Assembly: GCA_050739955.1 (NCBI GenBank)
Contig: JBOICI010000036.1
Coordinates: 11,656 to 75,655, forward strand
Reading direction: 5' to 3'
Length of the DNA: 64,000 nucleotides
Origin: Moraxellaceae bacterium
GTDB taxonomy: Bacteria > Pseudomonadota > Gammaproteobacteria > Pseudomonadales > Moraxellaceae
Of this stretch, positions 1,191 to 26,407 are shown piece after piece (position 1 is the stretch's first letter; the number at the start of each line of letters is the position of its first letter). Position numbers and translations under genes: made by a program. Below the pieces are notes generated by a model. That model made no database searches. It saw only the letters and a list, made by a program, of their open reading frames with translations, and was not told where the DNA came from.

Positions 1191-1529
1191 TTCGCTTTGA
1201 ATTGATATGCAAGGCCTGATGTACCAGGCCCTCTGCCGGTTCCGGAATATCCGGAACGCGGGGTGACCTCCACAAGGATCGGTCGTCTTACCCGCAGTGA
1301 AAGCTCCATTGAAGCCTCTTCAGTCCACAGAAACATACGACTGGCTTCTCAGGAACTTTCGTCATCGTTCCTGACCTGCCTCTGCCAGTCGAGCGTTCTC
1401 AGCTCCCCTCTTGCAGCAATCCGGTTTGGCGACGATTCCGCGCCAGCCGTTCCAGGGCCATTCATAGCCCTTTCCCCGGCTTGCTTATTGAATGACCCAC
1501 AGGGCTTTTTGCTGCCCCGGAGTTGTATT

Positions 1530-3569: not shown

Positions 3570-3584
3570 GTCTCTGCTACCAAT

Positions 3585-3612
3585 AAAAAAGCCGGCATAT
3601 GCCGGCTTTTTT
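3585..3612. terminator. bidirectional rho-independent terminator
   Basis: AAAAAAGCCGGC-ATAT-GCCGGCTTTTTT, between the convergent helicase and GGDEF genes. Confidence 0.85.
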
Positions 3613-3630
3613 ATTGGGCGAAAAAACGAT

Positions 3631-4953: not shown

Positions 4954-5493
4954 TCAATAGCCCAGCGCGATGTTGAAGCTGAAAAAGATGGTGGGGTCCA
5001 TTGTCAATTCATGCCCCGTCACCTCGTTTTTCTCCGCCAGCGCCGTGCCTATGCCTATCGTGGCTTCGGCACGGGTATATTCGGCAACCCAGTGATAGCC
5101 CAGCTCAGCGCCGCCGCCCAAGCGCTGATAGTACTCGCCATCCAGAACGTCACCAGACACCTGACCACCGAAGACACCGATGTAATAACCGCTGCCAAGA
5201 CTGTCCACGACCGTCAAAGGCTTGCGCCAACTGGCATTAGCAGCAAAACCTTCACCGATATTATGAAAACGGCCCGCGCGCAGCACGATGTAACCCCACT
5301 CGTCCGTCACGAACTCGAGATTGACATTGACCATATCGCTGAAAACACCAATGCCCACATAAAGGTCATCAGGGTTATCCACTTTGATCGTTGGTTTTTT
5401 GCTGCCCAGAAGCGGCTCATCGGCATCCGCTGCATGGGTAGCCGCTGCCAGCAGGCTGAACGCCAGCAGTAAGGTCTGGAAAAGTCTGGACAT
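4954..5493 (-). CDS. putative outer-membrane beta-barrel protein (hypothetical)
   Basis: Signal peptide MSRLFQTLLLAFSLLAAATHAADA, alternating amphipathic strands, and a C-terminal aromatic residue (..NIALGY). Confidence 0.55.
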   Translation of the reverse strand: MSRLFQTLLLAFSLLAAATHAADADEPLLGSKKPTIKVDNPDDLYVGIGVFSDMVNVNLEFVTDEWGYIVLRAGRFHNIGEGFAANASWRKPLTVVDSLGSGYYIGVFGGQVSGDVLDGEYYQRLGGGAELGYHWVAEYTRAEATIGIGTALAEKNEVTGHELTMDPTIFFSFNIALGY

Positions 5494-5625: not shown

Positions 5626-6759
5626 TCAGGCTGGCTGAAAGCCGAGCGCCGCCAGTAGTGGCCAGGCCGGATGAGCCGCCGGCAAAAGCACCCGATGCGC
5701 CGTGAACTCCCGCCGTGGCGGGTAATGCTTGCGCAGGGCATCAAAAGCCGCCGCCGGATCCGCCGCGGCCATGCTGGCACGCAAGGCGGCATCATCCCGG
5801 CGCATCGGGCAGGCCTGCATTAATACTGCCGCCAGAACAGCGGGTACAGACAGCTTGGCATCCACCTGCAAGGCCGCCGGCAGCTCCGCGGGCTGCAGTA
5901 CCTCCAGACTCAAAACAGCTGGCCGCCCGAGGAAATCACAAAGCTGCTCGTAGAGCATGGCCGTACCCCGCCACTTGCCTTCCTGGCTATAGCCCGCCAC
6001 ATGCGGACTGGCCGTATGCACCTGCTCCAGCAAGGCGGCCGAAACTCGCGGCTCACCTTCCCAGACATCCAGAATCGCCGTCAGCCTGCCGGGATGGGCA
6101 AGCAGATGCTGATGCAGAGCCGTATTGTCCACCACGCTGCCGCGGCTGCAATTGATCACGATACTACCGGGTGCAAGCGCCATGAGCTCTGTCGCGCCCA
6201 ATAAATGATGGGTGGCATATGCCCCTTCTTTTTGCAGCGGAACATGCAGGCTGATGATGTCGGCCTCGGCCAAGAGCTCGGACATGGTGCGCATTGGAAT
6301 GCCGGGCAGTTGCACCGCCGGATCACAGCCCACCAGACGAAAACCCAAGGTGGCTGCCAGGGCCGCCACGGCGCGGCCGGTATTACCCAATCCAACTATG
6401 CCCAGCGTCTTCTGCTCTGGCCGCCAGCCTTGCTCATAGGCCAGCATGACCAAGGCTGTTGTCACATATTCGCCCACCGCACGCGCATTGCAGCCTGGCG
6501 CTGAGGCCAGCGTAATGCCCTGCTCCTGCAAGGCTGACTTGTCGATATGGTCAGTCCCTATGGTGGCCGTCCCCACCCAGCGCAGGGCAGAGTCATGCAC
6601 CAGTTCGCGACTGACTTCAGTGACTGAGCGCACCAGCAGGATCTCGGCCGCATGCACATCCACAGCAGCCATCTGACGCCCCGGCATGAGGCGTAATTCG
6701 CCCAAACCAGCAAAGAATTCGGACAACAAGGGCATGTTTTCATCAGCCAGCAAATGCAT
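5626..6759 (-). CDS. pdxB: 4-phosphoerythronate dehydrogenase
   Basis: The N-terminus MHLLADENMPLLSEFFAGLGELRLMPGR is diagnostic of PdxB. A D-2-hydroxyacid dehydrogenase NAD fold (GIVGLGNTGRAV) is present. I set the start at the third ATG (6759), which has GGGAG 6 nt upstream. Confidence 0.9.
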   Translation of the reverse strand: MHLLADENMPLLSEFFAGLGELRLMPGRQMAAVDVHAAEILLVRSVTEVSRELVHDSALRWVGTATIGTDHIDKSALQEQGITLASAPGCNARAVGEYVTTALVMLAYEQGWRPEQKTLGIVGLGNTGRAVAALAATLGFRLVGCDPAVQLPGIPMRTMSELLAEADIISLHVPLQKEGAYATHHLLGATELMALAPGSIVINCSRGSVVDNTALHQHLLAHPGRLTAILDVWEGEPRVSAALLEQVHTASPHVAGYSQEGKWRGTAMLYEQLCDFLGRPAVLSLEVLQPAELPAALQVDAKLSVPAVLAAVLMQACPMRRDDAALRASMAAADPAAAFDALRKHYPPRREFTAHRVLLPAAHPAWPLLAALGFQPA

Positions 6760-7240
6760 ATCGACTCCCGGCATCAAATTGACGGCACTTTAATCCGCGG
6801 CACTGTGCCGAGCACAATCGATGCTGGCAAGCGGCGTATGGCCAATGCCATCACCACCGTCACCAATTCGTCATCGGCAACCGTTTACATGCCAAGGTGA
6901 CGAGCTTGCGCATTACACAGACGGATCACAGACCAACGGCAGAAAATGACCAATGAGCGTCACCCGCGCGTTCTTGCAAAAGCACCGCAATGGGGCAATA
7001 TCCGGCCACGATAATATGCTCCGGATTGTCATCACATTGGCATGAAAATTCGCCTGCAAGGCCCTGAAAGATCGTGATTTCAAGGCTTTGACGGACGAAT
7101 GGTAGTGTGCGTTAATAGCCCCGATTTAAAGGGCAGAGTACCTCAGCACGAATGTTGCAGAGGGCAAAAGACCCGCGGTTTTGAGCACTGGAAAAAGGCT
7201 CACGCCTCTTACAACCAATCTGTTTTCTGGATTAATCACA

Positions 7241-7771
7241 ATGACTCGTGGACGCTTGCTCGCCCTGTCTCTGCTGGGCCTTACCGCTGCTGCCGGACTC
7301 TCTTCTCCCTTGCTCGCCGCTGATGTACCTCTGCCTTCCGACCTTCAGGGCATGAAAGGTGAGTTGCTCAATCTCAATCGCGATATCTCGCAGCTGGAAA
7401 ACGAACTGCTTTTTCCCAGCGCAGAAACAGCCGTGGTGGTTTCCGTTGAAGCCGGCTCAGGCGTGAAAATCGTCGACGTCAATGTGCTGATCGACGATAA
7501 GAATGTCGGTTACCACTATTACAGCGATCAGGAATACAGCGCCCTCGCCAAAGGCGGGATGCAGCGCATCTATGCCGGCAATATCACCAGCGGTCAGCAC
7601 ACGCTGAAAACCGTTGTCACCGGCTACGACCCAGGCGGCAAGGATTTCCAGCGCACAGCCACTTATACCTTCACCAAGGGCTCGGCCCGCAAGGTCATAG
7701 AAATCAAAGCGGCAGACAATGCCAACCACACTCAGGGCGAGATCCGCTTCCGGGAGTGGGAAATCCAGTAA
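7241..7771 (+). CDS. secreted hypothetical protein, first gene of the TPR/Exb cluster
   Basis: Signal peptide MTRGRLLALSLLGLTAAAGLSSPLLAA, a short coiled-coil (LNLNRDISQLENELL), then a beta-rich domain. It is co-directional with and 30 nt upstream of the next gene. Confidence 0.6.
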   Translation: MTRGRLLALSLLGLTAAAGLSSPLLAADVPLPSDLQGMKGELLNLNRDISQLENELLFPSAETAVVVSVEAGSGVKIVDVNVLIDDKNVGYHYYSDQEYSALAKGGMQRIYAGNITSGQHTLKTVVTGYDPGGKDFQRTATYTFTKGSARKVIEIKAADNANHTQGEIRFREWEIQ

Positions 7772-7801
7772 GTCAGGCAGCCGCACAGGATTATCCGGGC
7801 C

Positions 7802-9730
7802 ATGAATCAGCCGTTCCGTTTTCGACGCGCCCCGCAACTGCTTGCGTTTGCCGTCGCCGCTCTTAGCTTGAATCAGGCGGCAGATGCCGCCGACCTGCGC
7901 AAACGCCTCAATGTCCGCCAGGAAGCCAGTGAAGTCGTGCTCGGCACGACGATGTACGACTATTACCAGGGCGACAGCTTTACCGCGCTCAACGATATCC
8001 TGCTGGCCAAAGCCATGGGACGTATCGACGACAGCGTCACGACCTCCGAACTATTGCTGGGTGATCTTTACACCGCATTCGGCATGCCCGATGAAGCCGA
8101 CACCACCTTCTCGCGCATGGCGGCGCGCGATATGCGCTCGCAGACTCGTAACGAAACCATGTTCCGTAAAGGTCGTCTGCAATATCAGCAGGGTAATTAT
8201 TTCGAAGCCGAACGCATCCTCAACGTCCCGCTGGACACGCAGATCACGCCCTTGGAAGCCGAGCGCCGTGTCATGCTGGCCAATGTGATGATGAGTCGTA
8301 ATGAGTTTACAGAGGCTCGAAATCTGCTGGCGCCGATTCCGCTGGACTCGCAGTTGGGCGCTTACGCTACTTACAACACCGGTGTCGCGCATTTACGTGC
8401 CGACCGCTCGCCGGAAGGCGTACGTCTATTGCAGACCGTGATGAATCTGCCGGTCAGCGACTCCGAAACCAATGCCCTCAAAGATCGCGCAGCGCTGGCC
8501 ATCGGCTTTAACTATCTGCAGCAGCAGAGCCCGGATCAGGCGCGTGATGCCCTCGTCAGCGTACGCCTGGAAGGCCCGTTCAGTAATTCCGCCATGCTGG
8601 CGCTGGGCTTTGCCCATTATGAAAAGAAGGACTACAAGCGTGCCCTGTCCTTCTGGCTGGAACTGCTGACCCGCAACCCCGGCGATCCCTCTGTACAAGA
8701 GGCCATGATTTTTGCACCGCGCGCCTATGAGGCGCTCAATGCCAGCCAGCAGGCCTTCTTCGGCTACAAACTGGCCATCACCACGCTCAATAATCAGCTG
8801 ACTGATATCGACCAGTTGGCCGAAGCCCTCAAGAAGCCGGAATGGCTGAATACACTCAGCCCCAGCTCTGACGGCGGCGTCAATGCCGACCCCATGGATG
8901 TGCCCGCCTCCGTCACTCCAGCCGACCATGACACCGTCGCCCTGCTCTATGGCCTGTTTGCCCAGCATCCTTTTAATGAAGGCTTTCAGCAGTATGAGCA
9001 GTTGCAGCGCCTCAAGACTCTGCTGAACCAGCGCAGCGACGATCTGCGCGCCATGCGTGATACCGCGGCGAGCCTGCAAAAGCGCCAGACCAGTCTCAGT
9101 ACCTCCGCCTCGCGCGTAGATGCTGTAGACAAGCGGCTCAGCTTAGTGGCCGAACGTTGGCCCATTCTGGAAAAGCGCGGGCGCCAGATAGCAAGAGATG
9201 GCAAGAGTGTTACCGGCGGCACTGTCAGCATCCAGAACATGGAGCGTCAGTTCAAGCTGGGGCAAATAGACGAGTATCTGACCAAGCAGCCGGATACCGC
9301 CGCCAATAAGGCTTTGAAGAATCGCGTTCGCGCCCTCAAAGGCCTGGTACTGATGGATGCGGCCAGCCGCGCGCCAGCCTCACAGGAACAGATCTACGCC
9401 GACATCGCCAGCAATGAAACCCAGTTGCGCCTGGCCCAGGTCCGTATGGAGGCACTGCAGCAACTGCTGGCCGACAACCAGAAAATACTGGCCAGCAATA
9501 ACGAGGCCCGTATCCGTGCTCTGGAAACCCGTTTAGCCGCCAGCCAGAAGCAGGTTGAAAAGGCACTGGATGAATACCGCACTTACCTGCGTACGCTGGC
9601 GGAAAACCAGTTGGAAGACACGCGTACCCGTATCAACAACGATCTTGCCGAGGCTCACCTCAGCATTGCCCGTCTCCAGGATGCCGCCTTGCTCCGCGGT
9701 GACGGTGCCTCCGGGAAGCCGCAGCCATGA
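7802..9730 (+). CDS. secreted TPR plus coiled-coil protein (642 aa)
   Basis: Signal peptide ...ALSLNQAADAAD. TPR-like repeats fill the N-terminal two thirds and long heptad-like coiled-coil segments fill the C-terminal third. The stop overlaps the next start (ATGA at 9727-9730). Confidence 0.7.
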   Translation: MNQPFRFRRAPQLLAFAVAALSLNQAADAADLRKRLNVRQEASEVVLGTTMYDYYQGDSFTALNDILLAKAMGRIDDSVTTSELLLGDLYTAFGMPDEADTTFSRMAARDMRSQTRNETMFRKGRLQYQQGNYFEAERILNVPLDTQITPLEAERRVMLANVMMSRNEFTEARNLLAPIPLDSQLGAYATYNTGVAHLRADRSPEGVRLLQTVMNLPVSDSETNALKDRAALAIGFNYLQQQSPDQARDALVSVRLEGPFSNSAMLALGFAHYEKKDYKRALSFWLELLTRNPGDPSVQEAMIFAPRAYEALNASQQAFFGYKLAITTLNNQLTDIDQLAEALKKPEWLNTLSPSSDGGVNADPMDVPASVTPADHDTVALLYGLFAQHPFNEGFQQYEQLQRLKTLLNQRSDDLRAMRDTAASLQKRQTSLSTSASRVDAVDKRLSLVAERWPILEKRGRQIARDGKSVTGGTVSIQNMERQFKLGQIDEYLTKQPDTAANKALKNRVRALKGLVLMDAASRAPASQEQIYADIASNETQLRLAQVRMEALQQLLADNQKILASNNEARIRALETRLAASQKQVEKALDEYRTYLRTLAENQLEDTRTRINNDLAEAHLSIARLQDAALLRGDGASGKPQP

Positions 9731-12720
9731 ATTCACGACGTCCCCCCGTATCCCGTTTTGCCCTGCGTCTGACGCCACTGGCGATAGCTCTCAGTCTGCT
9801 GGCAGCTTGCGCCAGCACACCCAAGGAGCCACCTGCGGCGCCACTGGCCAACAAGAACCGCTTCAGCGGCGCCACCCTGGCTGATCTTGAAAGCCGCGAC
9901 ATCCAGGTACAGTCCGACGTGCTGGCCCCGCAGTCAGCGGAAGATGCCCTGAGCAATTATCAAGCAGCACTCGGCCTCTTCCGTGATCCGAGTGCTCGTC
10001 TGGACACCATGCGCCGTATGGCCGACCTCACCATGGAGTCGTCCCAATCGCGCGAAATCGCCGCGGACAAGGGCGTGGGCTCTAACGCCGAGCTGCCTTC
10101 TGCCAATGAAGATCAGCTCTACGAACAGTTCATGCAGGGCATGAGTAGTGCGCGTGATCGCAAGACCGCTACAACAGCCAAGAAAGCGACGCCGGCCAAG
10201 CCCAAGGCACAGGTGAATTACGCCGAAGCCATCGCGCTCTACCAGCAGGTATTGAAAAACGCCCAGAGCGGCCCGGAACGTGCCGAGGCCTATTACAACC
10301 TCGCCAAGGCCTATGACATGAACGGCCAGCGCGATGAGTCTGTAGATGCCCTGCGCAAACTGGTTGATCAGTACCCAGGCAGCCAGAACATCGTCGAAGC
10401 CCAGTTCCGTATCGCCGAATACGAATTCTCCACCGGCCAGTATGTGGCCGCGGCCGATCACTACGGCGAAGTGGTGGCGTCACCGGATAATGCCGAATTC
10501 CGTGACCAGTCCCTCTACAAGCAGGGTTGGGCGCTGTACAAAGCCTCTGATTACGATCAGGCGCAGCCGATTTTCTTCCAGGTAGTGGAAGAGCTGCAGC
10601 CCAAGGCCGCCAACCCCGACAAAAATATCAGCCAGAATGCCCTCAAGCTGTTGGATGACACGTTCAACATCATCAGCTTGGGCTTCATCCAGCAAGATGG
10701 TGCCAAGTCGGTGGCACAGTATTTCAAGAAAGTCGGCGCCAAGGATTACGAAGCCGACGTCTACATGAATCTGGGTGAGACCTATCTGTCCAAGCGCCTT
10801 TATCGTGATGCGGCGCAGACCTTTGATTTCTTCGTGGCTCAGCATCCCTTTGATCCGCGTGCCCCGGAATTCAGCTCGGCTACCATACGCTCCTATCAAG
10901 ATGGCGGCTTCCCGTCGGAAGTGATTCCGGCCAAGGAAAACTTCATCAAGCACTACGGCCCCAAGAGCGAGTTCTGGGCCAAGTCTGACGAAAGAACGCA
11001 TGAAAACATTCTGCCCCTGCTACAGGCACATATCATCGATCTGGCCAAGTACTGGCACGCCACGGCACAGCAGAGCAAGAAACCTGATGACTACCTCAAG
11101 GCCGCTGGCTGGTATCGCGAGCATCTCGCGCTAACACCGCCAGAGTCCGAAGCCATCACCATCAACCAGCTCTTGGCTGAAGCCCTGTTTGCCGCCAAAC
11201 ATTTCGATGAAGCCATCGTCGAGTTTGAAAAAACGGCTTATAGCTACCCAACCAATACCAAGGGACAGGAAGCTGCTTACTTCGCGTTGATGGCCTATGG
11301 CGAGCAAGAGCCCGACATCGAGAAACAGCCCAAAGAGCAGCAGGATATCTGGTGGCAGCGTCGCGCTGAGAGTATTTACAAATATGCCGCCGCCTTCCCT
11401 GCCGACAAAAACACCGCTCTCGTGCTGCAAGGCCTGACCAACGATCAGATTGCCCGCAAGGATCTGGTTGGCGCCATGAAATCTGCCAGCACCATCCTGC
11501 AATTGCAGCCACCCGCACCCGAGGTCGTCCAGAAAGAATCCTGGATGGTGGTCGCTGATGGCGAGTTCGATCTGGGGCGGCCAGAGGCAGCGGAATTTGC
11601 CTACAGCAGGGTCCTGAGCTTTCAAGACATCACGCCCGAGCAGCGCAAGAAATATCAGGAGCGCATGAGTGCATCCGTCTACAAACAGGCGGAAAAAATG
11701 CGTGATGCCAAGGACATTGATGGCGCCGCTGCTGCTTTTCAGCGTGCCGCCAGCGTGTCTACCGACCCCAAGTTCAAGGCCGGTGCCGAGTTTGATGCCG
11801 CCACGATTTATCTGAATGCCGAACGCTATGCCGCTGCCATTCCCATGCTGGTGGCCTTCCGGGGCGCACATCCAGACAGCGAACTGAACTCCACCATCCC
11901 GGACAAACTGGCCCTCTCCTACGAGAAGACCGGCCAGCTGGACAAGGCTGCTGCGGAATACGAAACCATCGCGGTAGCTAATGCCAAAAACAACCCAGAT
12001 GTTGCTCGCGAAGCGCTCATGACGGCTGCTTCCATGTATGAGAAGTCCGACAAGTCTGACGATGCGGCCCGTATTTATCGCAAATACATTGCGGCCTATC
12101 CCAAGCCGGTCGATGCCAATATGGAAGCGACCTACAAGCTCTACGGCTATTACGACAAACAGGGCAATGCCACCGAAAGCCAAAGCCTGCTGCGTGAACT
12201 GTCACGTAGCTTTGATCGCGCCGGCTCTGAAAACACAACGCGCACCAGCTATCTCGGCGCCATGGCCAAGTTCAAACTGAACCAACCTGTTTATGACGAG
12301 TTTGCTGCCATCAAACTGAGCCAACCGCTCAAGCAAAGCCTAGCGAAAAAGAAAGCCGCCATGAAGAAGGCACTGGACGCGTATACGAAAACAGCTGAAA
12401 TCGGCGTCGCCGAATTCACTACTGCATCAAATCACCAGATTGCCGAGATTTACCGGAAATTCGCGGCCGATCTTATGGCTAGCGAACGCCCCAAGGGTCT
12501 CAACGAGCTGGAACAGGAGCAGTACGGCCTGTTGCTGGAAGAACAGGCCACACCTTTCGAGGACAAGGCACTGGATCTTTATGTGGCCAATGCCAACCTC
12601 GCCAAGCAGAACATTTACGACGAGTCCGTGCGCAAGAGTTTCGATGCGCTCGCCAAGCTCTCCCCGGGCCGCTACAACAAGCGCGAGCAGCCAGAAACCT
12701 TTGTTGACGTGATTTATTGA
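9727..12720 (+). CDS. large TPR-repeat lipoprotein (997 aa)
   Basis: Lipobox LSLLAAC. Many YbgF/TPR-type repeats are present (for example AEAYYNLAKAYDMNGQRDESVDALRKLVDQYPGS). ATGA overlap with the upstream gene. Confidence 0.75.
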   Translation: MNSRRPPVSRFALRLTPLAIALSLLAACASTPKEPPAAPLANKNRFSGATLADLESRDIQVQSDVLAPQSAEDALSNYQAALGLFRDPSARLDTMRRMADLTMESSQSREIAADKGVGSNAELPSANEDQLYEQFMQGMSSARDRKTATTAKKATPAKPKAQVNYAEAIALYQQVLKNAQSGPERAEAYYNLAKAYDMNGQRDESVDALRKLVDQYPGSQNIVEAQFRIAEYEFSTGQYVAAADHYGEVVASPDNAEFRDQSLYKQGWALYKASDYDQAQPIFFQVVEELQPKAANPDKNISQNALKLLDDTFNIISLGFIQQDGAKSVAQYFKKVGAKDYEADVYMNLGETYLSKRLYRDAAQTFDFFVAQHPFDPRAPEFSSATIRSYQDGGFPSEVIPAKENFIKHYGPKSEFWAKSDERTHENILPLLQAHIIDLAKYWHATAQQSKKPDDYLKAAGWYREHLALTPPESEAITINQLLAEALFAAKHFDEAIVEFEKTAYSYPTNTKGQEAAYFALMAYGEQEPDIEKQPKEQQDIWWQRRAESIYKYAAAFPADKNTALVLQGLTNDQIARKDLVGAMKSASTILQLQPPAPEVVQKESWMVVADGEFDLGRPEAAEFAYSRVLSFQDITPEQRKKYQERMSASVYKQAEKMRDAKDIDGAAAAFQRAASVSTDPKFKAGAEFDAATIYLNAERYAAAIPMLVAFRGAHPDSELNSTIPDKLALSYEKTGQLDKAAAEYETIAVANAKNNPDVAREALMTAASMYEKSDKSDDAARIYRKYIAAYPKPVDANMEATYKLYGYYDKQGNATESQSLLRELSRSFDRAGSENTTRTSYLGAMAKFKLNQPVYDEFAAIKLSQPLKQSLAKKKAAMKKALDAYTKTAEIGVAEFTTASNHQIAEIYRKFAADLMASERPKGLNELEQEQYGLLLEEQATPFEDKALDLYVANANLAKQNIYDESVRKSFDALAKLSPGRYNKREQPETFVDVIY

Positions 12721-12734
12721 GGCCGCGTGTGAAT

Positions 12735-13613
12735 ATGAGCATTAAACACACTTTCGCACTGAGCGCCCTCGCTGCCGCCCTGTTACTGGCCGGCTGCGCC
12801 AGCACGCCTAAGGCAACGGCGCCAGTGGAAGCCACCGACACTGCGGCGGCAGAGGCCAGCGAACCGGATCTGGTCGATCAGTTGCGTGAGCGTATGGCCG
12901 CAGGCCCTCTGCAGCGCCAGGAAAAAACTGAAGACCGTAAACCCTCTGAAGCCACGGCCGACAGCTCCAAGTCCCCCACCGTGGCTGTCGATCTCGCCAA
13001 GCAACAGGCCGCTGCTGCGATCGGCGCTGATTACGCCAAAGCACTGGGCCTGATGAGCAATGGCAAAGACGATGACGCCTTGGCCTTGCTCAAAAGCGTT
13101 GCGGGAAAAGCGCCCCAATTCTCCGGCCCGCTGGTGAATGAAGGTCTGATTTATCTGCGCAAGCAGAAATACGCCGATGCCGAAAAAGTACTGCAGGAAG
13201 CCATCAAGGTTAATCCGCGTAATCCCTTCGCTTTCAATCTGCTCGGGGTTGCCCTGCGTGAGCAAGGCAAGTTCCCGGATGCCAAGGCGGCTTATGAATC
13301 TGCGCTGGCCATAGACCCCAATTACGCCAAGGCTCATTTCAATATGGGCGTGCTGGCAGATCTTTATATGCAGGATTTGCCGCTGGCCCTGAGCCACTAC
13401 CAGCGCTATCAGACCCTGCAATCCAAACCAGATCCTGCTGTGGCCAACTGGATTACCGATCTGCAAAAGCGCACCGGCACCTATGTGCCGCCGGCACCAC
13501 TGCCCGTGCTACCACCCGTGGAAGAAGCCGGCGCTGATAGCACAGAAGCTGATGCTGCTGCGCCTGTAGAAGCCGCTACACCTGCCGCTGAACCCGTCGA
13601 AGGGAAGCAATGA
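12735..13613 (+). CDS. TPR-repeat lipoprotein
   Basis: Lipobox ALLLAGC. Canonical TPRs are present (NEGLIYLRKQKYADAEKVLQEAIKVNPRNPFAFNLLGVAL..AYESALAIDPNYAKAHFNMG). I preferred the ATG at 12735 over the tracked TTG at 12717. Confidence 0.75.
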   Translation: MSIKHTFALSALAAALLLAGCASTPKATAPVEATDTAAAEASEPDLVDQLRERMAAGPLQRQEKTEDRKPSEATADSSKSPTVAVDLAKQQAAAAIGADYAKALGLMSNGKDDDALALLKSVAGKAPQFSGPLVNEGLIYLRKQKYADAEKVLQEAIKVNPRNPFAFNLLGVALREQGKFPDAKAAYESALAIDPNYAKAHFNMGVLADLYMQDLPLALSHYQRYQTLQSKPDPAVANWITDLQKRTGTYVPPAPLPVLPPVEEAGADSTEADAAAPVEAATPAAEPVEGKQ

Positions 13614-13957
13614 TCATGATGAAAGCAAGCGCAACTGCCCTGCTCTGTCTGGCCACCGCCCTGGCTCCAGCCGCTTTCGCCGCTCCGGCCAAATCAACAC
13701 CAGCGAAAAAAACTACGACTCCGGCCGCGGCCGCAGCTCCTGCTCCAGACGAAGCTTCATCCGAAGGACTGCAAACCGATGTGGTCGGCAGCAAGGAAGC
13801 CCCAGGCGTATTCAATATCGTTTCCTGGAAGGACAAAGCGGTGGAAGTTCCCGTCAAGCAGGTGAGCACCTCCATCTTGCGTGAAACCTTGCAGCCACTG
13901 GATCGCAATGTACTGCGTCGTGAAATCCTGCTGCAGCAGTCCATGAGCCAGCAATAA
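13610..13957 (+). CDS. small secreted hypothetical protein
   Basis: Signal peptide MIMMKASATALLCLATALAPAAFAAP, followed by an Ala/Pro/Thr-rich linker. ATGA overlap with the upstream TPR gene. Confidence 0.55.
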   Translation: MIMMKASATALLCLATALAPAAFAAPAKSTPAKKTTTPAAAAAPAPDEASSEGLQTDVVGSKEAPGVFNIVSWKDKAVEVPVKQVSTSILRETLQPLDRNVLRREILLQQSMSQQ

Positions 13958-14103
13958 GCCACTGAACACAACATCAAAGAACACAAGATGTTGTCGCCAG
14001 CCGTGAAGGCGGCAACACCGGGACGGTGCGGCTTAAGCCAATCTGTCTTTCCAAACAAACACGGGGCAACCATTACAACCATTCGGTAGAAGGAGATTTC
14101 AAA

Positions 14104-14739
14104 ATGTCGATTATCAAGTTTATTCAGGAAGGCGGTTTCTTCATGTACCCCATCCTGCTGGTGCTCTTCTTGGGCTTCGGCATCGTGATCGAACGCGCGC
14201 TGTATCTGGCCAAGGTGGTTAGTACCAACAAGAGCATCTGGGCTGATGTTTACCCGCTGATCACCAAGGGCCAGCTCAAACCGGCACTGGACAAGGTCAA
14301 GGGCAGCGACACCGCCATCGGCCGCATCCTGGCCAACGGCCTGACCCGCAGCCTCAATGCCCGCCGCGTAGAAGATGTGGAAACCGCTATGGAAGAGGGC
14401 CTGATGGAAGTCATGCCGCGCCTGGAAGCCCGCACCTCCTATGTATCCACCTTCGCCAATATCGCCACCCTGCTCGGTCTGACCGGTACGGTGCAGGGTC
14501 TGATCTCCGCCTTCGACGCGGTGGCCAATGCTGATCCCGCTCTCAAGGGTGACCTGCTCTCTGGCTCCATCTCCGTGGCCATGAACACCACCCTGTTCGG
14601 CCTCGTGGTCGCTATCCCGCTGGTGTTGGCTTACTCCTATCTGCAGAACAAGACCAACTCCGTGGTGGAAAGCCTGGAAATGGCATCAGTGAAATTCCTG
14701 AACGCCCTGCGCCAGCTCAGCGCGAACAAGCCTGAATAA
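14104..14739 (+). CDS. MotA/TolQ/ExbB-family proton channel protein
   Basis: Three TM segments and the conserved C-terminal core (ANIATLLGLTGTVQGLISAF...SVAMNTTLFGLVVAIP). GAAGGAG RBS lies upstream of the ATG at 14104. Confidence 0.85.
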   Translation: MSIIKFIQEGGFFMYPILLVLFLGFGIVIERALYLAKVVSTNKSIWADVYPLITKGQLKPALDKVKGSDTAIGRILANGLTRSLNARRVEDVETAMEEGLMEVMPRLEARTSYVSTFANIATLLGLTGTVQGLISAFDAVANADPALKGDLLSGSISVAMNTTLFGLVVAIPLVLAYSYLQNKTNSVVESLEMASVKFLNALRQLSANKPE

Positions 14740-14772
14740 ATCGGCCCTGACATCTAGATAGAGGACCGAATC

Positions 14773-15282
14773 ATGAGCTCGCGCAACAGAACGCGCAGCA
14801 CAGAAGCGGAGCTGGACATCACCTCGTTCATGAACTTGATGGTGATCCTGATCCCCTTTCTGCTGCTGAATGCGGTCTTCACGCAAGTTGCCGTGCTGAA
14901 TGTGTCGCTACCCAAAGATGGTGGTGGCGCAGCAGGCAATGAACCCAAGAAGCCGTTGGTACTGGAAGTAATGGTGTATGGCGACCGCTTTGTCGTTGCC
15001 GACCGCCAGACCGGCCCGCTGAAAACTATCGGCCATGCTGATGGTAAGCCAGCGTACAAGGCACTCAACGATTATCTGCGGGAAGTGAAGACGCAGTACC
15101 CCGCCGTGTCCGAAGCCACTGTTTTGCTGGAGCAAGACACAAGCTACGACGCCCTGATTCACACCATGGACGCCGTGCGCATCATCCAGAGTGAAGTGAA
15201 CGGCAAGCCCACCAAATACGCCCTGTTTCCGGACGTAGGTATTGGTGATGCACCGGTTGATCCGCAAAAGGGAGGTGCATGA
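14773..15282 (+). CDS. ExbD/TolR-family protein (paralog 1)
   Basis: The N-terminus has the conserved LDITSFMNLMVILIPFLLL TM helix containing Asp. A periplasmic ExbD-like domain follows. Confidence 0.8.
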   Translation: MSSRNRTRSTEAELDITSFMNLMVILIPFLLLNAVFTQVAVLNVSLPKDGGGAAGNEPKKPLVLEVMVYGDRFVVADRQTGPLKTIGHADGKPAYKALNDYLREVKTQYPAVSEATVLLEQDTSYDALIHTMDAVRIIQSEVNGKPTKYALFPDVGIGDAPVDPQKGGA

Positions 15283-15785
15283 TGAAATCAAATGCACGCG
15301 CCCTGCGTCTGGCTCGCCGCCAGAAGCGCCACACGCCACAAGCGGCGCTGAACATCACCTCGCTGATGGATATTTTCACCATTCTCGTGTTCTTCCTTTT
15401 GGTGAACTCCGAGAACCCGGCCAAGCTGCCACCGGTGGACAAGATCCAACTGCCGGTTTCGCTGGCGGAAACCGCTCCCAAGCAGAATCTGGTGGTGATG
15501 GTGACCAAAACCGACATCCTGGTACAGGACATGAAGGTGGCTACTGTGGCTGATATTCTGACCACCGATGCCATGCTGATTCCTGCCCTGGCCGAAGAGC
15601 TCAAATACCGTGCCGCCAAAACAGTACCGGTGCTGAATGCCGACGGCATTCCCGAGCGCGAAGTCACGGTGCTGGGCGACAAAGAGCTTTCCTATAAAGC
15701 TCTGCGCAAAGTCATGGCCACACTCAGTGCCAATGATTACTCGAAGATCTCCTTCGGCGTGATCAAAGGAGGGAAGGCACCATGA
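15279..15785 (+). CDS. ExbD/TolR-family protein (paralog 2)
   Basis: LNITSLMDIFTILVFFLLV TM helix with the conserved Asp. ATGA overlap with paralog 1. Confidence 0.8.
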   Translation: MMKSNARALRLARRQKRHTPQAALNITSLMDIFTILVFFLLVNSENPAKLPPVDKIQLPVSLAETAPKQNLVVMVTKTDILVQDMKVATVADILTTDAMLIPALAEELKYRAAKTVPVLNADGIPEREVTVLGDKELSYKALRKVMATLSANDYSKISFGVIKGGKAP

Positions 15786-16732
15786 CTAGCGCCATGATGC
15801 ATCATCTGGAGGCCATGCTGCCTTGGGATGATCTGCCCAGTGACGAGGAACGCAAACGCCGCATTACCATCATCATGCTGACGCTGGCGCTGCTGATATC
15901 GCTGCTCATCATGTTCGTCAAGGTACCGGCACAGCCGCGCTCCGAGGCGGATGCGGTGCCGGAACGTATTGCTCGCGTGATCGAACGCAAGGTTGAGCTG
16001 CCACCTCCGCCCCCTCCCAAACCCAAGGAAGAAGTGAAGGAAGAGGCGCCCAAGGAAGAGGCCAGCAAACCCAAAGAAGCCGCCAAGCCTGCCGAAGTCG
16101 CTCAGGCCAAGGTCAAGGCATCCAAGATTGCCAAAGAAGCCGGTTTGGATTCTCTGGCCAGTCTGCGTGAAGAGTTTGACGTGCCCGTTGTTGGCACTGG
16201 CGGACTCATCACCAGCACCCAGGAGGCCGGCACCAGCCGTAACCTGCTGACCAGCCGTGCAGGCGCCGGTTCCGGCGTGGGTACGGCCTATGCCGGTGGC
16301 GTCAGCTCCGGTTTTGGTGGCGGCAAAGCCGGTGGCAAAGGCAGTGCAGGCATGATGGGCAAGGGCGGTGGCAATCTGCAGGCCGTGGCCAGTGGCATTG
16401 GCACTGCTGCAGCAGCCAGCAAAGTGGGCAAAGACGGCAAGTCGCGTCGTACAACGGAAGATATCCGCAAGATTTTCGACCAGTACGGCGGCAAGCTGAA
16501 CAATGCCTATCAGCGCGCACTGCGTGATGACCCCACCATGCAGGGCACACTGCGCGTCAAGCTCACCATCGCGCCGGACGGCTCGGTGACCAGTGCCAGC
16601 GTTGCCAGCAGCCAGCTCAACAATGCCGAGCTGGAAAGCAAGATGCTGTCGATTGTGCGTGGATTCAACTTCGGTGCCGAAGAAGTGGAAATCTGGACCG
16701 GAACCTACGACATCAACTTCGTCTCGAACTGA
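15782..16732 (+). CDS. TonB-like energy-transducer protein (possible AgmX/PglI-type C-terminal domain)
   Basis: N-terminal TM anchor, a Pro/Lys/Glu-rich spacer (PPPPPPKPKEEVKEE..), a Gly-rich segment, and a C-terminal TonB_C-like fold (GTLRVKLTIAPDGSVTSASV...MLSIVRGFNF). ATGA overlap with ExbD paralog 2. Confidence 0.7.
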   Translation: MTSAMMHHLEAMLPWDDLPSDEERKRRITIIMLTLALLISLLIMFVKVPAQPRSEADAVPERIARVIERKVELPPPPPPKPKEEVKEEAPKEEASKPKEAAKPAEVAQAKVKASKIAKEAGLDSLASLREEFDVPVVGTGGLITSTQEAGTSRNLLTSRAGAGSGVGTAYAGGVSSGFGGGKAGGKGSAGMMGKGGGNLQAVASGIGTAAAASKVGKDGKSRRTTEDIRKIFDQYGGKLNNAYQRALRDDPTMQGTLRVKLTIAPDGSVTSASVASSQLNNAELESKMLSIVRGFNFGAEEVEIWTGTYDINFVSN

Positions 16733-16748
16733 TGCTGCTGGGTAACTC

Positions 16749-16779
16749 AAAAAAGGCGCGGATTTCCGCGCCTTTTTTG
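16749..16779 (+). terminator. rho-independent terminator ending the TPR/Exb cluster
   Basis: AAAAAAGGCGCGGA-TTT-CCGCGCCTTTTTT, immediately after the TonB-like stop codon. Confidence 0.85.
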
Positions 16780-16812
16780 TGCCTGCTCGGCGGCCAGCCC
16801 GCTGCTGCTACA

Positions 16813-18216
16813 ATGCGCTCCCCGACCGAGGTCCGCATGTCCGCAGCCCCCTCCTTCCGCTCCGAACTCCACGCCCTGCTCCTGCTGCTTGGCCCCATCC
16901 TGCTGACCCAGCTCTCGCAGGCTGCCTTCGGCTTTGTCGATACCGTCATGGCCGGTCAGGTGTCGCCGCTGGATCTGGCCGCGGTGGCACTGGGTGCCAG
17001 CCTCTGGCTGCCCATGGTGCTTTTGGTCTCCGGCATCCTTATGGCCACCACACCACTGGTGGCTGCTGCCTGGGGCCGCCGCGACCACGGTGAAGTCCCC
17101 CATGTCGTGCATCAGGCGCTGTGGCTGGCGCTATTCATAGGCGTGGGCGGTGCCGTCCTGCTGCATCATGTCAGCCCAGTCTTTGTCTGGCTGGACACGC
17201 CAGAGCATCTGCGTGAAATGACACGGCGCTATCTCGCCGCCATGGCCTTCGGTCTGCCGGCCATGGCGCTTTTTTCCGTGCTGCGCTGCTACTGCGAGGC
17301 CATGATCAAACCCATGCCGGTCACGCTGATCAGCATTATCGGGCTGTTGCTCAATATTCCCCTTAACTACATCTTCATTTACGGGAAATTCGGAGCACCG
17401 GCGCTGGGTGGCGTCGGCTGCGGCTGGGCCTCGGCCATCTCCATGTGGGCCATGCTGCTGATGCTGGCCACCTATGTGCTGTGCGCCGCTAGCTTTGCGC
17501 AAACCCGCCTCTTACATCAGCGCAGCCGGCCGCAATGGGCCCGCATCAAACCCTTTCTCAAACTGGGCCTGCCCATCGGTATCGCCATCTTTTTTGAAGT
17601 CAGTGTGTTTGCCATTGTCGCCATCCTTATCAGCCCATTGGGCGAGCTGCAGGTGGCCGGCCACCAGATTGCGCTCTCAGTCACCTCGCTGCTCTTCATG
17701 TTCCCGCTCAGTCTGGCCTTCGCCATGACCATACGCATAGGCCACGCCTTTGGTCGTCAGGATCTGGCGGCCATACGCCGTACCCGTCGTGTTGGCCTCG
17801 TCATGCTGGGCTTGTTTGCCTGCGTCACCGCCACTTTTATCGTACTCACGCGTACCTGGCTGGCCGATCTCTACACCGATGATGCTCAAGTCATACATCT
17901 GGCGGCCGATCTACTGTTGTTTGCGGCCGCCTACCAGATTGTCGATGCCCTGCAGGTCGGCGCTGCCGGCGCTCTGCGCGGCCTGCAAGACACAAAAGGC
18001 CCCATGGTACTCACCATGATCTCCTACTGGATTGTCGCCCTGCCCTTAGGCTATGTGCTGGGGCTGACGTTTCTGACCGGCGCGCGCTACGGCCCCTACG
18101 GTTTCTGGACCGGCCTTGTGGCCGGCCTCGCGGTAGCATCGGTGCTGCTCAACTGGCGTCTGCGCAAACAAACGCGCAAGTTACAGCGGCAGGGCTTTCC
18201 CACGCACCGGCACTAA
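16813..18216 (+). CDS. norM: MATE-family multidrug efflux transporter
   Basis: About 12 TM helices. The N-terminal signature LLLLGPILLTQLSQAAFGFVDTVMAG is typical of NorM. The start is placed after the terminator, at ATG 16813, with ATG 16837 as an alternative. Confidence 0.8.
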   Translation: MRSPTEVRMSAAPSFRSELHALLLLLGPILLTQLSQAAFGFVDTVMAGQVSPLDLAAVALGASLWLPMVLLVSGILMATTPLVAAAWGRRDHGEVPHVVHQALWLALFIGVGGAVLLHHVSPVFVWLDTPEHLREMTRRYLAAMAFGLPAMALFSVLRCYCEAMIKPMPVTLISIIGLLLNIPLNYIFIYGKFGAPALGGVGCGWASAISMWAMLLMLATYVLCAASFAQTRLLHQRSRPQWARIKPFLKLGLPIGIAIFFEVSVFAIVAILISPLGELQVAGHQIALSVTSLLFMFPLSLAFAMTIRIGHAFGRQDLAAIRRTRRVGLVMLGLFACVTATFIVLTRTWLADLYTDDAQVIHLAADLLLFAAAYQIVDALQVGAAGALRGLQDTKGPMVLTMISYWIVALPLGYVLGLTFLTGARYGPYGFWTGLVAGLAVASVLLNWRLRKQTRKLQRQGFPTHRH

Positions 18217-26358: not shown

Positions 26359-26381
26359 TCACATAGTTCGCTGCATCAAAA

Positions 26382-26407
26382 AAAGCCCGGGCTGGCCCGG
26401 GCTTTTT
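26382..26407 (+). terminator. rho-independent terminator
   Basis: AAAGCCCGGGC-TG-GCCCGGGCTTTTT after the acyl-CoA dehydrogenase stop. Confidence 0.8.

Follow-up and report, generated by a model that had tools for sequence, protein, structure and literature searches.

Which kind of envelope machine is encoded by the nine-gene cluster found at positions 7241-16732 of a 64-kb stretch of DNA (the window, that is the whole stretch analysed) from an uncultured Moraxellaceae bacterium, and on what does this machine act? The original prediction described nine co-directional genes, and we confirmed the nine open reading frames (ORFs) at the predicted starts, all on the + strand, as follows:

g1, 7241-7771, + strand, 176 aa: predicted secreted protein with no Pfam family
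g2, 7802-9730, + strand, 642 aa: predicted periplasmic TPR protein at the GltC position
g3, 9727-12720, + strand, 997 aa: multi-TPR lipoprotein scaffold at the GltD position, predicted outer-membrane
g4, 12735-13613, + strand, 292 aa: TPR lipoprotein at the GltE position, predicted outer-membrane
g5, 13610-13957, + strand, 115 aa: predicted small secreted protein at the position of the "additional gene" between gltE and aglR
g6, 14104-14739, + strand, 211 aa: putative AglR-type MotA/TolQ/ExbB proton-channel subunit
g7, 14773-15282, + strand, 169 aa: TolR/ExbD-like protein at the AglQ position, with Asn21
g8, 15279-15785, + strand, 168 aa: TolR/ExbD-like protein at the AglS position, with Asp31
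g9, 15782-16732, + strand, 316 aa: putative GltG-type TonB-like transducer with an AgmX/PglI C-terminal domain
Terminator, 16749-16779, strand not assigned: intrinsic hairpin with A-run and T-run flanks, potentially bidirectional, at the operon end

The nine genes appear to form a real, translationally coupled operon. As predicted, four junctions (9727, 13610, 15279 and 15782) show 4-nt stop/start overlaps of the ATGA type, the remaining intergenic gaps being 30, 14, 146 and 33 nt long, and a single strong terminator follows the last gene. This hairpin (GGCGCGG-ATTT-CCGCGCC followed by a T-run) has a folding energy of −28.2 kcal/mol (z = −6.8), and none of 200 shuffled sequences was as stable. 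It was not reported by a consensus terminator scanner, a likely reason being that the A and T runs on either side of it base-pair, thereby consuming the T tail. The scanner reported only two weak + strand sites within the cluster and, on both strands, 12 sites for 12.3 expected by chance. Alternative TTG or GTG starts exist upstream of g1, g4 and g6.

Turning to the motor, g6 matched the Pfam family MotA_ExbB (99 bits), and g7 and g8 matched ExbD (48 and 55 bits, respectively). The best NCBIfam and PDB matches of g6 are TolQ and then ExbB, and all 72 homologues retain its channel motifs GL.GT..G.I.AF and AMN.T..GL..AIP unchanged, the channel Thr and Pro being conserved. Consistent with the original prediction, the three proteins belong to these families and lie far outside the canonical TolQ, TolR, ExbB and ExbD equivalog cut-offs (61.7 versus 221 bits for TolQ and 35.8 versus 206 for ExbB in the case of g6; 17-22 versus 153-216 for ExbD). 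TolR and ExbD carry an essential membrane Asp at the position equivalent to Asn21 of g7. This Asn21, which aligns with Asp23 of Escherichia coli TolR, is Asn in 68/68 homologues, while Asp31 of g8, which aligns with Asp25 of ExbD, is Asp in all 67 homologues, and both residues are also kept in distant clusters. Accordingly, g6 is a TolQ-like channel subunit, and g7 and g8 are TolR-like plug subunits that are invariably asymmetric at the proton-binding position (Asn versus Asp), the membrane Asp occurring only in g8. This asymmetry is a modest new point, as the core-complex literature examined (see below) makes no mention of an invariant Asn in the AglQ-position subunit. In Myxococcus xanthus both AglQ and AglS have a membrane Asp, and the D28N mutant of AglQ is dead (2022 review), whereas the AglQ-position subunit of our cluster has a natural Asn.

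The transducer g9 gave sub-threshold matches only to the TonB_C/TolA families of Pfam. It passed the NCBIfam models NF033768 (AgmX/PglI C-terminal domain; 57 bits, cut-off 40) and tonB_Cterm (31.2 bits, cut-off 27.1), and matched the myxobacterial GltG model with 64.5 bits (E = 7e-18; model positions 400-628 of 650). Its close relatives in NCBI are named "AgmX/PglI C-terminal domain-containing protein", and several relatives are annotated "energy transducer TonB". Its cytoplasmic N-terminus is short (about 24 residues, with a conserved LPWD motif), and its linker is Pro/Lys/Glu-rich, then Gly-rich. The AlphaFold2 model comprises a transmembrane helix (residues 19-45), a largely disordered region with short helices (56-212, mostly of low confidence) and a C-terminal domain (222-316, pLDDT about 90), for which Foldseek placed nothing but C-terminal domains of TonB, HasB, FusB or TolA among its 24 best matches. 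Thus, g9 is modelled as a single-helix inner-membrane anchor extended by a long flexible periplasmic linker to an AgmX/PglI-type end with the fold of the TonB C-terminal domain.

Could the motor be an ordinary TonB-ExbB-ExbD energiser, with receptors encoded elsewhere and accessory TPR proteins, as in TonB2/TonB3-type systems? It shares with such systems the MotA_ExbB and ExbD families, a TonB C-terminal fold that superposes on TonB domains, some of them solved in receptor complexes, the tonB_Cterm match, the TonB annotation of several relatives, a Pro-rich linker and presumed proton-driven pulling through the periplasm; moreover, cellodextrin import was proposed by the authors who studied the Fibrobacter cluster discussed below. 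We nevertheless regard this reading as quite improbable, for the following reasons. First, the tiny equivalog scores place the ExbB and ExbD similarity at the superfamily level only, and the AgmX/PglI and GltG models fit g9 better. Second, TonB systems do not feature a pair of obligatorily different ExbD-like paralogues, one with Asn and the other with Asp. Third, in agreement with the original prediction, a scan of 24 ORFs of the 64-kb window, neighbours of the cluster and large ones (21 with a Pfam match and three without), revealed no TonB-dependent receptor, siderophore gene, TolB or Pal. Fourth, across more than 80 loci the invariant, obligate partners of the motor are TPR lipoproteins, never a receptor.

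The five products encoded upstream of the motor were expected to carry signal peptides or lipoboxes, and indeed g3 and g4 have lipoboxes (LAAC and LAGC, respectively), while g1, g2 and g5 have hydrophobic N-terminal signal-like segments, judged by eye and with a hydropathy scan, and are predicted to be secreted. In both g3 and g4 the lipobox Cys is followed by Ala-Ser, that is, there is no Asp at position +2, hence their predicted outer-membrane location; Cys28 of g3 is invariant in 14 homologues. The TPR content predicted for the large proteins was confirmed with Pfam in g2 (N-terminal TPR_2, TPR_19, TPR_16 and TPR_6), g3 (TPR_6, 75 bits) and also g4 (TPR_11 and TPR_1), but the predicted coiled coil of g2, whose C-terminal half is helical or coiled, corresponds to weak family matches (residues 396-465). 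As to g4, it matched the NCBIfam GltE model below the cut-off (37 bits, E = 1.8e-9), and unrelated TPR families scored higher. No Pfam or NCBIfam family matched g1 or g5. The AlphaFold2 model of g1 (mean pLDDT 82.5; above 90 across residues 62-175) comprises a signal peptide, one long helix and an eight-strand beta-sandwich, for which Foldseek returned generic Ig/transthyretin-like matches only (best E about 0.01). As for g5, it has a signal peptide and a linker that is variable and rich in Ala and Pro, whereas its C-terminal module of about 55 aa is conserved (family consensus GSxEAPxVxNVVPWKDK...LxPLDxDVLxRE); the core motif of this module, PxVLxxVPW, is retained in two distant clusters.

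The original prediction regarded the cluster as a reduced version of the Agl-Glt/Nfs machineries, and this reading holds. We propose that the cluster very probably represents the Agl-Glt/Nfs core complex family in stand-alone form, as a proton-motive-force-driven, envelope-spanning machine operating on the Tol/Ton principle. The novelty that the prediction implied does not hold, since the core complex was defined in 2011 as gltC, gltD, gltE, gltG, aglR, aglQ, aglS and one extra gene, and as the ancestor of the Myxococcus gliding and spore-coat machines (Luciano et al., PMC3169522), a view restated in 2013 (Wartel et al., PMC3858216) and 2020 (bioRxiv 10.1101/2020.07.22.216333). It occurs as a single locus, with no assigned function, in Gammaproteobacteria, one betaproteobacterium, Geobacter and Fibrobacter (PMC3169522); Moraxellaceae were absent from the 2011 genome set. 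Our assignment stems from the match in gene order, protein sizes and domain content with the published clusters. First, the published order, GltC-GltD-GltE-small gene-AglR-AglQ-AglS-GltG, and the gene set (Group B genes of Gammaproteobacteria, Geobacter, Methylibium and Fibrobacter; PMC3169522, PMC3858216) are those of g2 to g9, and the published complexes likewise have a short GltG devoid of FHA domains. Second, the sizes of the Marinobacter VT8 proteins (648/952/189/-/235/170/166/324 aa) parallel those of g2 to g9 (642/997/292/115/211/169/168/316 aa). Third, g2 and g3 have the size and position of the GltC (550-692 aa) and GltD (933-1016 aa) homologues, and g4 has the position of the GltE homologues (162-263 aa), of Table S3 of Luciano et al. 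The orthology of g2, g3 and g4 to GltC, GltD and GltE is thus suggested by synteny, size and this published table. In the same table, one locus tag is skipped at the g5 position in every gammaproteobacterial cluster, and g5 corresponds to the published additional gene.

Profiling the neighbourhood across genomes, as had been recommended, showed that the linkage is far beyond chance. The nine-gene order is conserved in 80 genome loci, which represent six or more gammaproteobacterial lineages (Moraxellaceae, Alcanivoracaceae, Permianibacter, Pleionea, Kangiellaceae and Cellvibrionaceae), and also in four metagenome loci that are more distant; wherever the contig of one of the 80 loci is long enough, gene order and strand are the same virtually without exception. 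Homologues of g2, g3 and g4 occur in 76, 80 and 79 of these 80 loci, respectively. A g1 homologue lies directly 5' of the GltC-like gene in 70/80 loci, and likewise in very distant clusters, which we reached through g1 relatives with 28-37% identity; the g1 family counts 778 clusters at 50% identity. Hence, whereas the published list holds seven genes and one extra, g1 is an equally conserved ninth member. With the core-complex identity in print since 2011, our modest additions are g1, the Asn/Asp asymmetry and the conserved PxVxNxVPW module of g5. Two outcomes would have spoken against the original prediction: canonical TonB/ExbBD motor proteins that serve a specific receptor, or TPR proteins unrelated to the GltD/E type in a linkage that is not conserved. 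The equivalog scores and the conserved linkage observed here agree with neither.

Membership of this family is compatible with a second Tol-Pal-like envelope-integrity system, in which the motor and a TolA-like g9 would pull at the TPR lipoproteins of the outer membrane without moving any cargo. The outer membrane would thereby be tethered or remodelled, for instance at division or in the control of vesicles. Like TolQ-TolR-TolA-TolB-Pal-CpoB, the cluster would combine a 5:2-type proton channel (g6 is nearer TolQ than ExbB, and its nearest solved relatives are TolQ) with an inner-membrane-anchored transducer bearing a long linker and a TolA/TonB-fold end (g9 weakly matches TolA models, and TolA domain III is among its fold matches). 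It would also have a CpoB-like TPR partner (g3 scored 88.5 bits on the CpoB/YbgF model, under the cut-off of 90.1, and one of its homologues is annotated "TolA-binding protein") and outer-membrane lipoproteins, g3 and g4, like Pal. We consider this reading rather unlikely, as the nine products and the ORFs scanned include no TolB or Pal, none of the nine products has an OmpA-like peptidoglycan-binding domain, every Tol equivalog score is far under its cut-off, the plug would be a one-Asp heterodimer instead of a TolR homodimer, and the TPR partners are very large. Furthermore, the characterised relatives Glt and Nfs move cargo (PMC3169522, PMC3858216), and the patchy, horizontally transferred distribution, at times with several copies per genome, is unlike that of a housekeeping integrity system (PMC3169522).

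Returning to the core-complex reading, our cluster shares several features with the M. xanthus Agl-Glt and Nfs machines: a TolQ-like channel combined with a pair of TolR-like subunits; a TonB-like transducer that ends in an AgmX/PglI C-terminal domain; large scaffolds made of TPR lipoproteins, GltD and GltE being Cys1 lipoproteins too; and, at the gltF position, a small, mostly disordered connector. It differs in being one operon, the M. xanthus genes lying at three loci, and in having no GltA/B/H outer-membrane barrels, GltK or CglB adhesin, GltI or GltJ. That it encodes a working gliding apparatus of the Myxococcus or Bdellovibrio type is extremely improbable, despite its homology to the gliding core and its occurrence in Agitococcus lubricus, a cultured relative described as a twitching coccus. 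The Group A genes (gltA/B/H/K, for barrels and a lipoprotein, gltI and gltJ) are absent from the cluster and its conserved neighbourhood, and the cytoplasmic part of g9, of only about 24 residues and devoid of FHA domains, compares with roughly 330 residues, with FHA, in GltG. Without the FHA domains there should be no link to an AglZ/MglA/MreB platform, unlike in M. xanthus, and without the Group A genes as well the machine should be static, with no coupling to the cytoskeleton. Besides, the core genes are insufficient for motility, and most of their carriers are non-gliding (PMC3169522).

For the mechanism we draw on the TolQR and ExbBD structures, and on the 2025 AlphaFold model of the M. 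xanthus machine, as analogues. We propose that a g6 pentamer would enclose a g7-g8 heterodimer, and that proton flow through the single Asp of g8 would drive a conformational or rotary stroke passed on to the g9 helix; an AglR-GltG interaction has been seen in a two-hybrid assay (PMC3169522). In the published M. xanthus model, GltD is a pillar along which GltG is threaded and to which GltE is bound, GltC is the outer-membrane connector, and GltF a small disordered bridge. Likewise, the linker and C-terminal domain of g9 would contact the outer-membrane-anchored, GltD-like g3, to which g4 would be bound, while g2 may be an adaptor on the way to the outer membrane, g5 a small connector resembling a TonB box and g1 an additional periplasmic adaptor. 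The output would be mechanical work performed at the outer membrane, on something either at its inner face or at its surface. No counterpart of the GltA/B outer-membrane beta-barrels is encoded within the cluster or close to it, which counts against this scheme, as the force path then has no defined partner in that membrane.

To our knowledge, the only non-myxobacterial relative with experimental data is the Fibrobacter succinogenes cluster FSU_2396-2403 (OmpA, two TPR proteins, ExbB, two ExbD and a TonB family protein). Judging from order and annotation, FSU_2397-2403 are apparently equivalent to Fisuc_1892-1897, a core complex in the table of Luciano et al. It differs from our cluster in belonging to another phylum, in having no GltE-size gene listed and in its adjacent OmpA gene, which has no counterpart here. 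Cellulose induces the Fibrobacter cluster, whose TPR protein and OmpA were detected in a vesicle complex together with cellulases and fibro-slime. As to the cargo, we suggest with low confidence that the Moraxellaceae machine may handle a surface polymer or an adhesive complex, rather than import a nutrient, because Nfs moves a spore-coat polymer (PMC3858216), because the apparent Fibrobacter homologue is cellulose-induced with its TPR protein in a cellulose-adhesion complex, and because the carriers of the cluster are enriched in degraders of insoluble substrates.

The nine-gene cluster at 7241-16732 is very probably a member, in Moraxellaceae, of a kind of core complex that has been known since 2011. 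In that year, Luciano et al. (PMC3169522) divided 14 M. xanthus gliding genes into Group A, confined to Myxococcales and Bdellovibrionales, and Group B (gltC, gltD, gltE, gltG, aglR, aglQ and aglS), which extends to several Gammaproteobacteria, one betaproteobacterium, Geobacter and Fibrobacter as well. Outside Myxococcales and Bdellovibrionales, the Group B genes form a single cluster, to which that study assigns no function, with one additional small gene, which lies between gltE and aglR and has no Myxococcales homologue; Table S3 of that study lists this pattern for Marinobacter, Saccharophagus, Teredinibacter, Hahella, Cellvibrio and Shewanella. The core complex was later described as a stand-alone 'basal transport machinery' (Wartel et al. 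2013, PMC3858216). It is regarded as ancestral to two Myxococcus machines that have been studied in depth, and our finding adds one host family to its carriers, from an uncultured bacterium.

The genes and signals of the cluster, with the corresponding position in the core complex and the published size range (Table S3, PMC3169522)
7241 (+), g1: 176 aa; Pfam scan without a family
7802 (+), g2: 642 aa; GltC position (550-692 aa); TPR repeats (Pfam)
9727 (+), g3: 997 aa; GltD position (933-1016 aa); lipoprotein with TPR repeats (Pfam)
12735 (+), g4: 292 aa; GltE position (162-263 aa); lipoprotein with TPR repeats (Pfam)
13610 (+), g5: 115 aa; position of one unassigned locus tag; Pfam scan without a family
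13958-14103: 146-nt gap, the sole sizeable intergenic space, with the scaffold genes (g1-g5) on one side and the motor genes (g6-g9) on the other
14104 (+), g6: 211 aa; AglR position (205-272 aa); MotA_ExbB, 99 bits (Pfam)
14773 (+), g7: 169 aa; AglQ position (169-188 aa); ExbD, 48 bits (Pfam)
15279 (+), g8: 168 aa; AglS position (162-185 aa); ExbD, 55 bits (Pfam)
15782 (+), g9: 316 aa; GltG position (321-334 aa); TonB-like protein of the AgmX/PglI type
16749-16779: terminator hairpin

This assignment is based on the following lines of evidence. First, g2 to g9 agree with Table S3 in both order and size. Second, g5, which belongs to no family, fills the locus-tag gap present in every gammaproteobacterial cluster of that table. 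Third, one MotA/TolQ/ExbB-type gene is followed by two TolR/ExbD-type paralogues, as in the aglR, aglQ and aglS series, and g9 lies directly downstream of these motor genes, as does GltG; g7 is taken as the AglQ counterpart on the gene order of Table S3. Fourth, three TPR proteins of the GltC, GltD and GltE size classes are encoded upstream in the same sequence, their orthology being assigned by order and size. The NCBIfam GltE model gives g4 a score of 37 bits (E 1.8e-9), below its cut-off of 225, and the MamA, PrsT, PilW and NlpI models score higher, while no GltC or GltD model match was obtained even at E 10. The original prediction of a reduced Agl-Glt core was thus correct as regards gene order, sizes, the AgmX/PglI domain and linkage, but not as regards novelty, such clusters having been in print since 2011. 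What the comparison adds is a unit of nine genes rather than eight, the single-Asp pair of a stator that is predicted to be heterodimeric, and a connector motif. Word-index searches with g3 and g9 returned, among the matches listed, close gammaproteobacterial relatives only, and a literature search by the published locus tags found no paper with functional data.

The predicted layout as one operon was borne out by the ORF calls, which place nine plus-strand genes at the positions listed, with 4-nt ATGA overlaps at the four junctions 9727, 13610, 15279 and 15782; at the remaining junctions the genes are 30, 14, 146 and 33 nt apart, and the motor genes g6-g8 are contiguous and translationally coupled. 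The terminator hairpin that had been noticed in the sequence after g9 folds with -28.2 kcal/mol (z = -6.8). It was missed by the consensus terminator scanner, probably because its flanking A/T runs pair, thereby consuming the T tail; the other sites reported by this scanner are at chance level (12 found versus 12.3 expected), with only two on the plus strand inside the cluster, both weak. A consensus promoter scan gave no sigma-70-like site ahead of g1, and the cluster has no match in Rfam. The 146-nt gap between g5 and g6 has no significant fold (z = -1.25) and could hold an internal promoter that sets unequal expression levels for the two halves of the operon. The lipoboxes noticed in g3 (LAAC) and g4 (LAGC) are indeed present, each followed by Ala-Ser, and the g3 lipobox cysteine is invariant in 14 homologues. 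According to the E. coli sorting rule, lipoproteins without Asp at position +2 go to the outer membrane; g3 and g4 are predicted to be sorted there because they have no Asp at that position. The N-termini of g1, g2 and g5 are signal-like, as judged by eye and hydropathy only.

The domain assignments made from the sequence were also upheld by Pfam for g2-g4 and g6-g8. The C-terminal domain of g9 is of the TonB type at the domain level only: it passes the cut-off of TIGR01352 (tonB_Cterm; 31.2 bits versus 27.1) and gives a sub-threshold TonB_C/TolA match in Pfam (19.8 bits for TonB_C, cut-off 24.6). The g9 protein scores higher with NCBIfam NF033768, the AgmX/PglI C-terminal domain (57 bits, above the curated cut-off of 40), and with the model of myxobacterial GltG (64.5 bits, E 7e-18), where it covers positions 400-628 of 650, i.e., the periplasmic half; a score below the full-length cut-off of 650 is expected for a protein that lacks the FHA half. 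An NCBI protein of a metagenome-assembled Moraxellaceae bacterium equals g3 with 100% identity; in the same record, g9 is named 'TonB family protein', and NCBI calls several of its close relatives 'AgmX/PglI C-terminal domain-containing protein'. In an AlphaFold2 model built with 30 homologues, a transmembrane helix (19-45) is joined by a long and mostly disordered linker to a C-terminal domain of high confidence, and the 24 best fold matches are without exception C-terminal domains of TonB, HasB, FusB or TolA. The top one, H. pylori TonB (6sly), is also reported as the best match of the GltJ C-terminal domain (2025 structural paper). A sequence search of PDB chains with g9 gave no match, and only the fold search did. 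Alignments of g9 homologues show an invariant L-P-W-D motif in the short cytoplasmic N-terminus, just ahead of the transmembrane helix; a motif of this kind is not known from TonB or TolA, and it may be a contact to the g6 channel.

Against a canonical TonB system stand the low equivalog scores of the motor proteins (35.8 bits versus a cut-off of 206 for the NCBIfam exbB model; 17-22 versus 153-216 for the ExbD models), the asymmetry of the ExbD pair and the constant TPR partners, and we consider this reading unlikely. The reported absence of a TonB-dependent receptor, TolB or Pal nearby also held among the ORFs scanned in the 64-kb window, and no such receptor occurs in the cluster or in any of more than 80 related loci. 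TonB-dependent receptors are often unlinked to their motors, so the absence of a nearby one is not decisive.

The main functional rival is a Tol-Pal-like system maintaining envelope integrity, which is compatible with membership of the core-complex family. The solved structures nearest to g6 are TolQ (38 bits) and then ExbB (27 bits), and a resemblance of g3 to CpoB also favours this reading, while g6-g9 do not reach the TolQ, TolR or TolA equivalog level (61.7 bits versus 221 for tolQ, 20-25 versus 127 for tolR and 32.8 versus 59.45 for tolA). Neither a WD40/TolB nor an OmpA/Pal domain turned up when the nine products and their neighbours were scanned, and the distribution of the cluster is patchy and multi-copy, which also speaks against a Tol-Pal-like role. 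A defence system of the Zorya-like type was considered as well and is excluded, PADLOC giving no match.

A full gliding motor is likewise excluded by missing parts. By domain and size only, no Group A gene of a complete gliding or Nfs machinery (the gltA/B/H barrels, gltK, gltI, gltJ, gltF) is found in the cluster, in its conserved neighbourhood or among the scanned ORFs of the window. Moreover, g9 has about 24 residues ahead of its transmembrane helix and no FHA match, whereas GltG carries two FHA domains and a transmembrane helix at 330-348 (2025 structural paper).

The linkage of the nine genes was expected to be conserved in other genomes, and it is. Scanning genomes with g3 homologues as the seed alignment yielded 120 loci, the best 80 of which were analysed by tblastn with the nine proteins; these 80 are from Gammaproteobacteria only (Moraxellaceae, Agitococcus, Fluviicoccus, many Alcanivorax species, Permianibacter, Pleionea, Kangiellaceae and Cellvibrionaceae), and order and strand are the same wherever the contig allows. 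Matches were found in 80 of these loci for g3, 79 for g4, 76 for g2, 75 for g6, 70 for g1, 69 each for g7 and g8, 67 for g9 and 64 for g5, a small ORF occupying the g5 slot even where tblastn misses it. The same order occurs in four metagenome loci; over the genome and metagenome loci together, identity goes down to about 31% for g3 and 28% for g1. An all-against-all comparison of the loci revealed no further universally linked gene family, and a plasmid search with the motor genes gave no match. Four loci (L048, L052, L055 and L057) have a permuted gene order, in which the g1-g2 pair follows g9 rather than preceding g3 but keeps its strand and its linkage. One locus, L003 (JAVHYE010000075.1, 'MAG: Pedobacter sp.'), bears a Bacteroidota label; its g1-g4 are 87-93% and its g5-g9 51-67% identical to the proteins of the window, with the same flanking pdxB (76%) and MATE (85%) genes, and the label is most likely a binning error in the genome record.

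Concerning the stator, it is worth noting that only one of the two ExbD-type proteins has the essential membrane aspartate. In alignments with E. coli TolR and ExbD, this residue faces Asn21 of g7 and Asp31 of g8; across the loci, the position is Asn in 68/68 g7 homologues and Asp in 67/67 g8 homologues, and the asymmetry is kept in distant clusters. The g6 protein keeps the channel motifs with Thr and Pro. In M. xanthus, AglQ and AglS both carry Asp, and the choice between hetero- and homodimer was left open (2022 review citing Sun et al. 2011); the AglQ D28N mutation inactivates the motor (PMC3858216), and an AglQ-AglS heterodimer within an AglR pentamer has been predicted (2025 model). A g7 homodimer would have no proton-binding residue; the invariant one-Asp pair argues, at the level of sequence, for an obligate heterodimer as the plug in the core-complex family. 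The two TolR-like subunits would then not be interchangeable, which bears on the point left open in 2022.

Two small proteins complete the unit. The first one, g1, is outside the published core list yet is conserved like the others. It matches no NCBIfam family, and its confidently predicted fold is a helix plus an eight-strand beta-sandwich; Foldseek matched merely generic beta-sandwiches, and the fold was set aside as a functional lead. The g1 family is large (778 clusters at 50% identity), and on unrelated metagenome contigs the same eight-gene core is immediately preceded by a distant g1 relative in two cases (28% and 37% identity). The unit to be tested thus comprises nine genes, g1 included. 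In the second one, g5, a signal peptide and a variable linker of low complexity precede a conserved module of about 55 residues (family alignment), the core of which, PxVLxxVPW, is retained in distant clusters. Its position is that of gltF in the M. xanthus order gltD-gltE-gltF-gltG. GltF is mostly disordered and links GltC to the GltG C-terminal domain by beta-strand addition (2025 structural paper), and it has been likened to a TonB box (2022 review). By analogy, g5 may play GltF's part, and its short conserved motif offers a sharper target for tests.

Distant clades have a thioredoxin-fold gene of the TlpA/AhpC type directly ahead of g1 (16 loci), and it accompanies the g1-g2 pair where that pair follows g9. 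The loci with this gene or those named next, all outside the window, are L048, L052, L055, L057, L069-L075, L076, L078, L081 and L083-L086. In 13 loci, an ApbE flavin transferase gene adjoins the cluster, and four or five loci contain genes for DUF4266 and DUF3570; none of these four occurs anywhere in the 64-kb window. Together, these genes may form an accessory periplasmic redox module. ApbE was rejected as a tenth member for the window, being adjacent in those 13 loci only, on either side, and absent from the 64 kb.

Based on the TolQR and ExbBD structures and on the M. xanthus model, we propose that a g6 pentamer would surround a g7-g8 plug, and that proton flow via Asp31 of g8 would generate a stroke handed to the g9 helix. 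The linker and C-terminal domain of g9 would then engage the g3 scaffold anchored in the outer membrane, to which g4 would be attached, with g2 oriented to the outer membrane and g5 and g1 acting as adaptors. Since g9 has almost no cytoplasmic part and the Group A genes are absent, the machine should be a static force transducer, uncoupled from the cytoskeleton, and not a gliding motor. As for its cargo, three indirect hints point weakly to the handling of a surface polymer or to adhesion. First, Nfs moves the spore-coat polysaccharide (PMC3858216). Second, the Fibrobacter genes FSU_2397-2403 are induced on cellulose, and their TPR protein was found with cellulases and fibro-slime (Fibrobacter study); they agree in order and annotation with Fisuc_1892-1897 of Luciano et al., and we infer that both sets are the same cluster. 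Third, most carriers degrade insoluble substrates (Cellvibrio, Saccharophagus, Teredinibacter, Marinobacter and Alcanivorax), a pattern read from the list of carriers.

A joint reading, which we hold to be rather improbable as a whole, would be that a nine-gene unit (not seven plus one), with an obligate 5:1:1 stator and a single proton-binding Asp, works as a self-contained machine powered by protons, holding or moving a complex for adhesion or polymer handling at the outer membrane of bacteria living on insoluble substrates (alkanes, lipids, cellulose). This would have been its ancestral job before gliding and spore-coat assembly, with a periplasmic thioredoxin/ApbE redox module travelling with g1 as a partner in some lineages. 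Cultured carriers with feasible genetics are Alcanivorax species, Agitococcus lubricus, Fluviicoccus keumensis and Pleionea sediminis.

The neighbours of the cluster are genes for a DEAD-box helicase, a GGDEF protein, a 179-aa secreted protein, PdxB, a MATE transporter, a hydrolase, an MFS transporter and PurU, with regulators and beta-oxidation genes farther away.

Features around the cluster
1485-3737: long ORF antisense to a real gene
4954-5493 (-): 179-aa secreted protein, no Pfam family, C-terminus ...NIALGY, between the GGDEF gene and pdxB
5626-6777 (-): pdxB, 4-phosphoerythronate dehydrogenase type with DUF3410, divergent, upstream of the cluster
11131-12183: long ORF antisense to a real gene
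15737-16750 (-): long ORF antisense to a real gene
16732-18216 (+): MATE transporter, mechanical ORF
23955-32000 and 45000-52000: two AraC-type regulators, acyl-CoA dehydrogenase, FadB-type enzyme, cNMP-binding patatin-like phospholipase, large PAS hybrid histidine kinase

A terminal aromatic residue, such as that of the 179-aa protein, is typical of outer-membrane beta-barrels; among the best 80 of the 120 loci, this gene is near the cluster in 17 closely related ones only. In the same 80 loci, pdxB is upstream of the cluster in 56-57, from Moraxellaceae and Alcanivoracaceae, which is unusually stable for an unrelated gene; this linkage is local synteny. The mechanical MATE ORF begins in an overlap with the g9 stop and would cross the terminator hairpin, and translation probably begins at the ATG at 16837 (MSAAPSF...), past the terminator. 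The long antisense ORFs, of up to 750 aa opposite the DEAD-box helicase, have no family match in any case and resemble side effects of the G+C-rich composition rather than genes. The gene content at 23955-32000 and 45000-52000 is consistent with a lipid- or hydrocarbon-degrading lifestyle.
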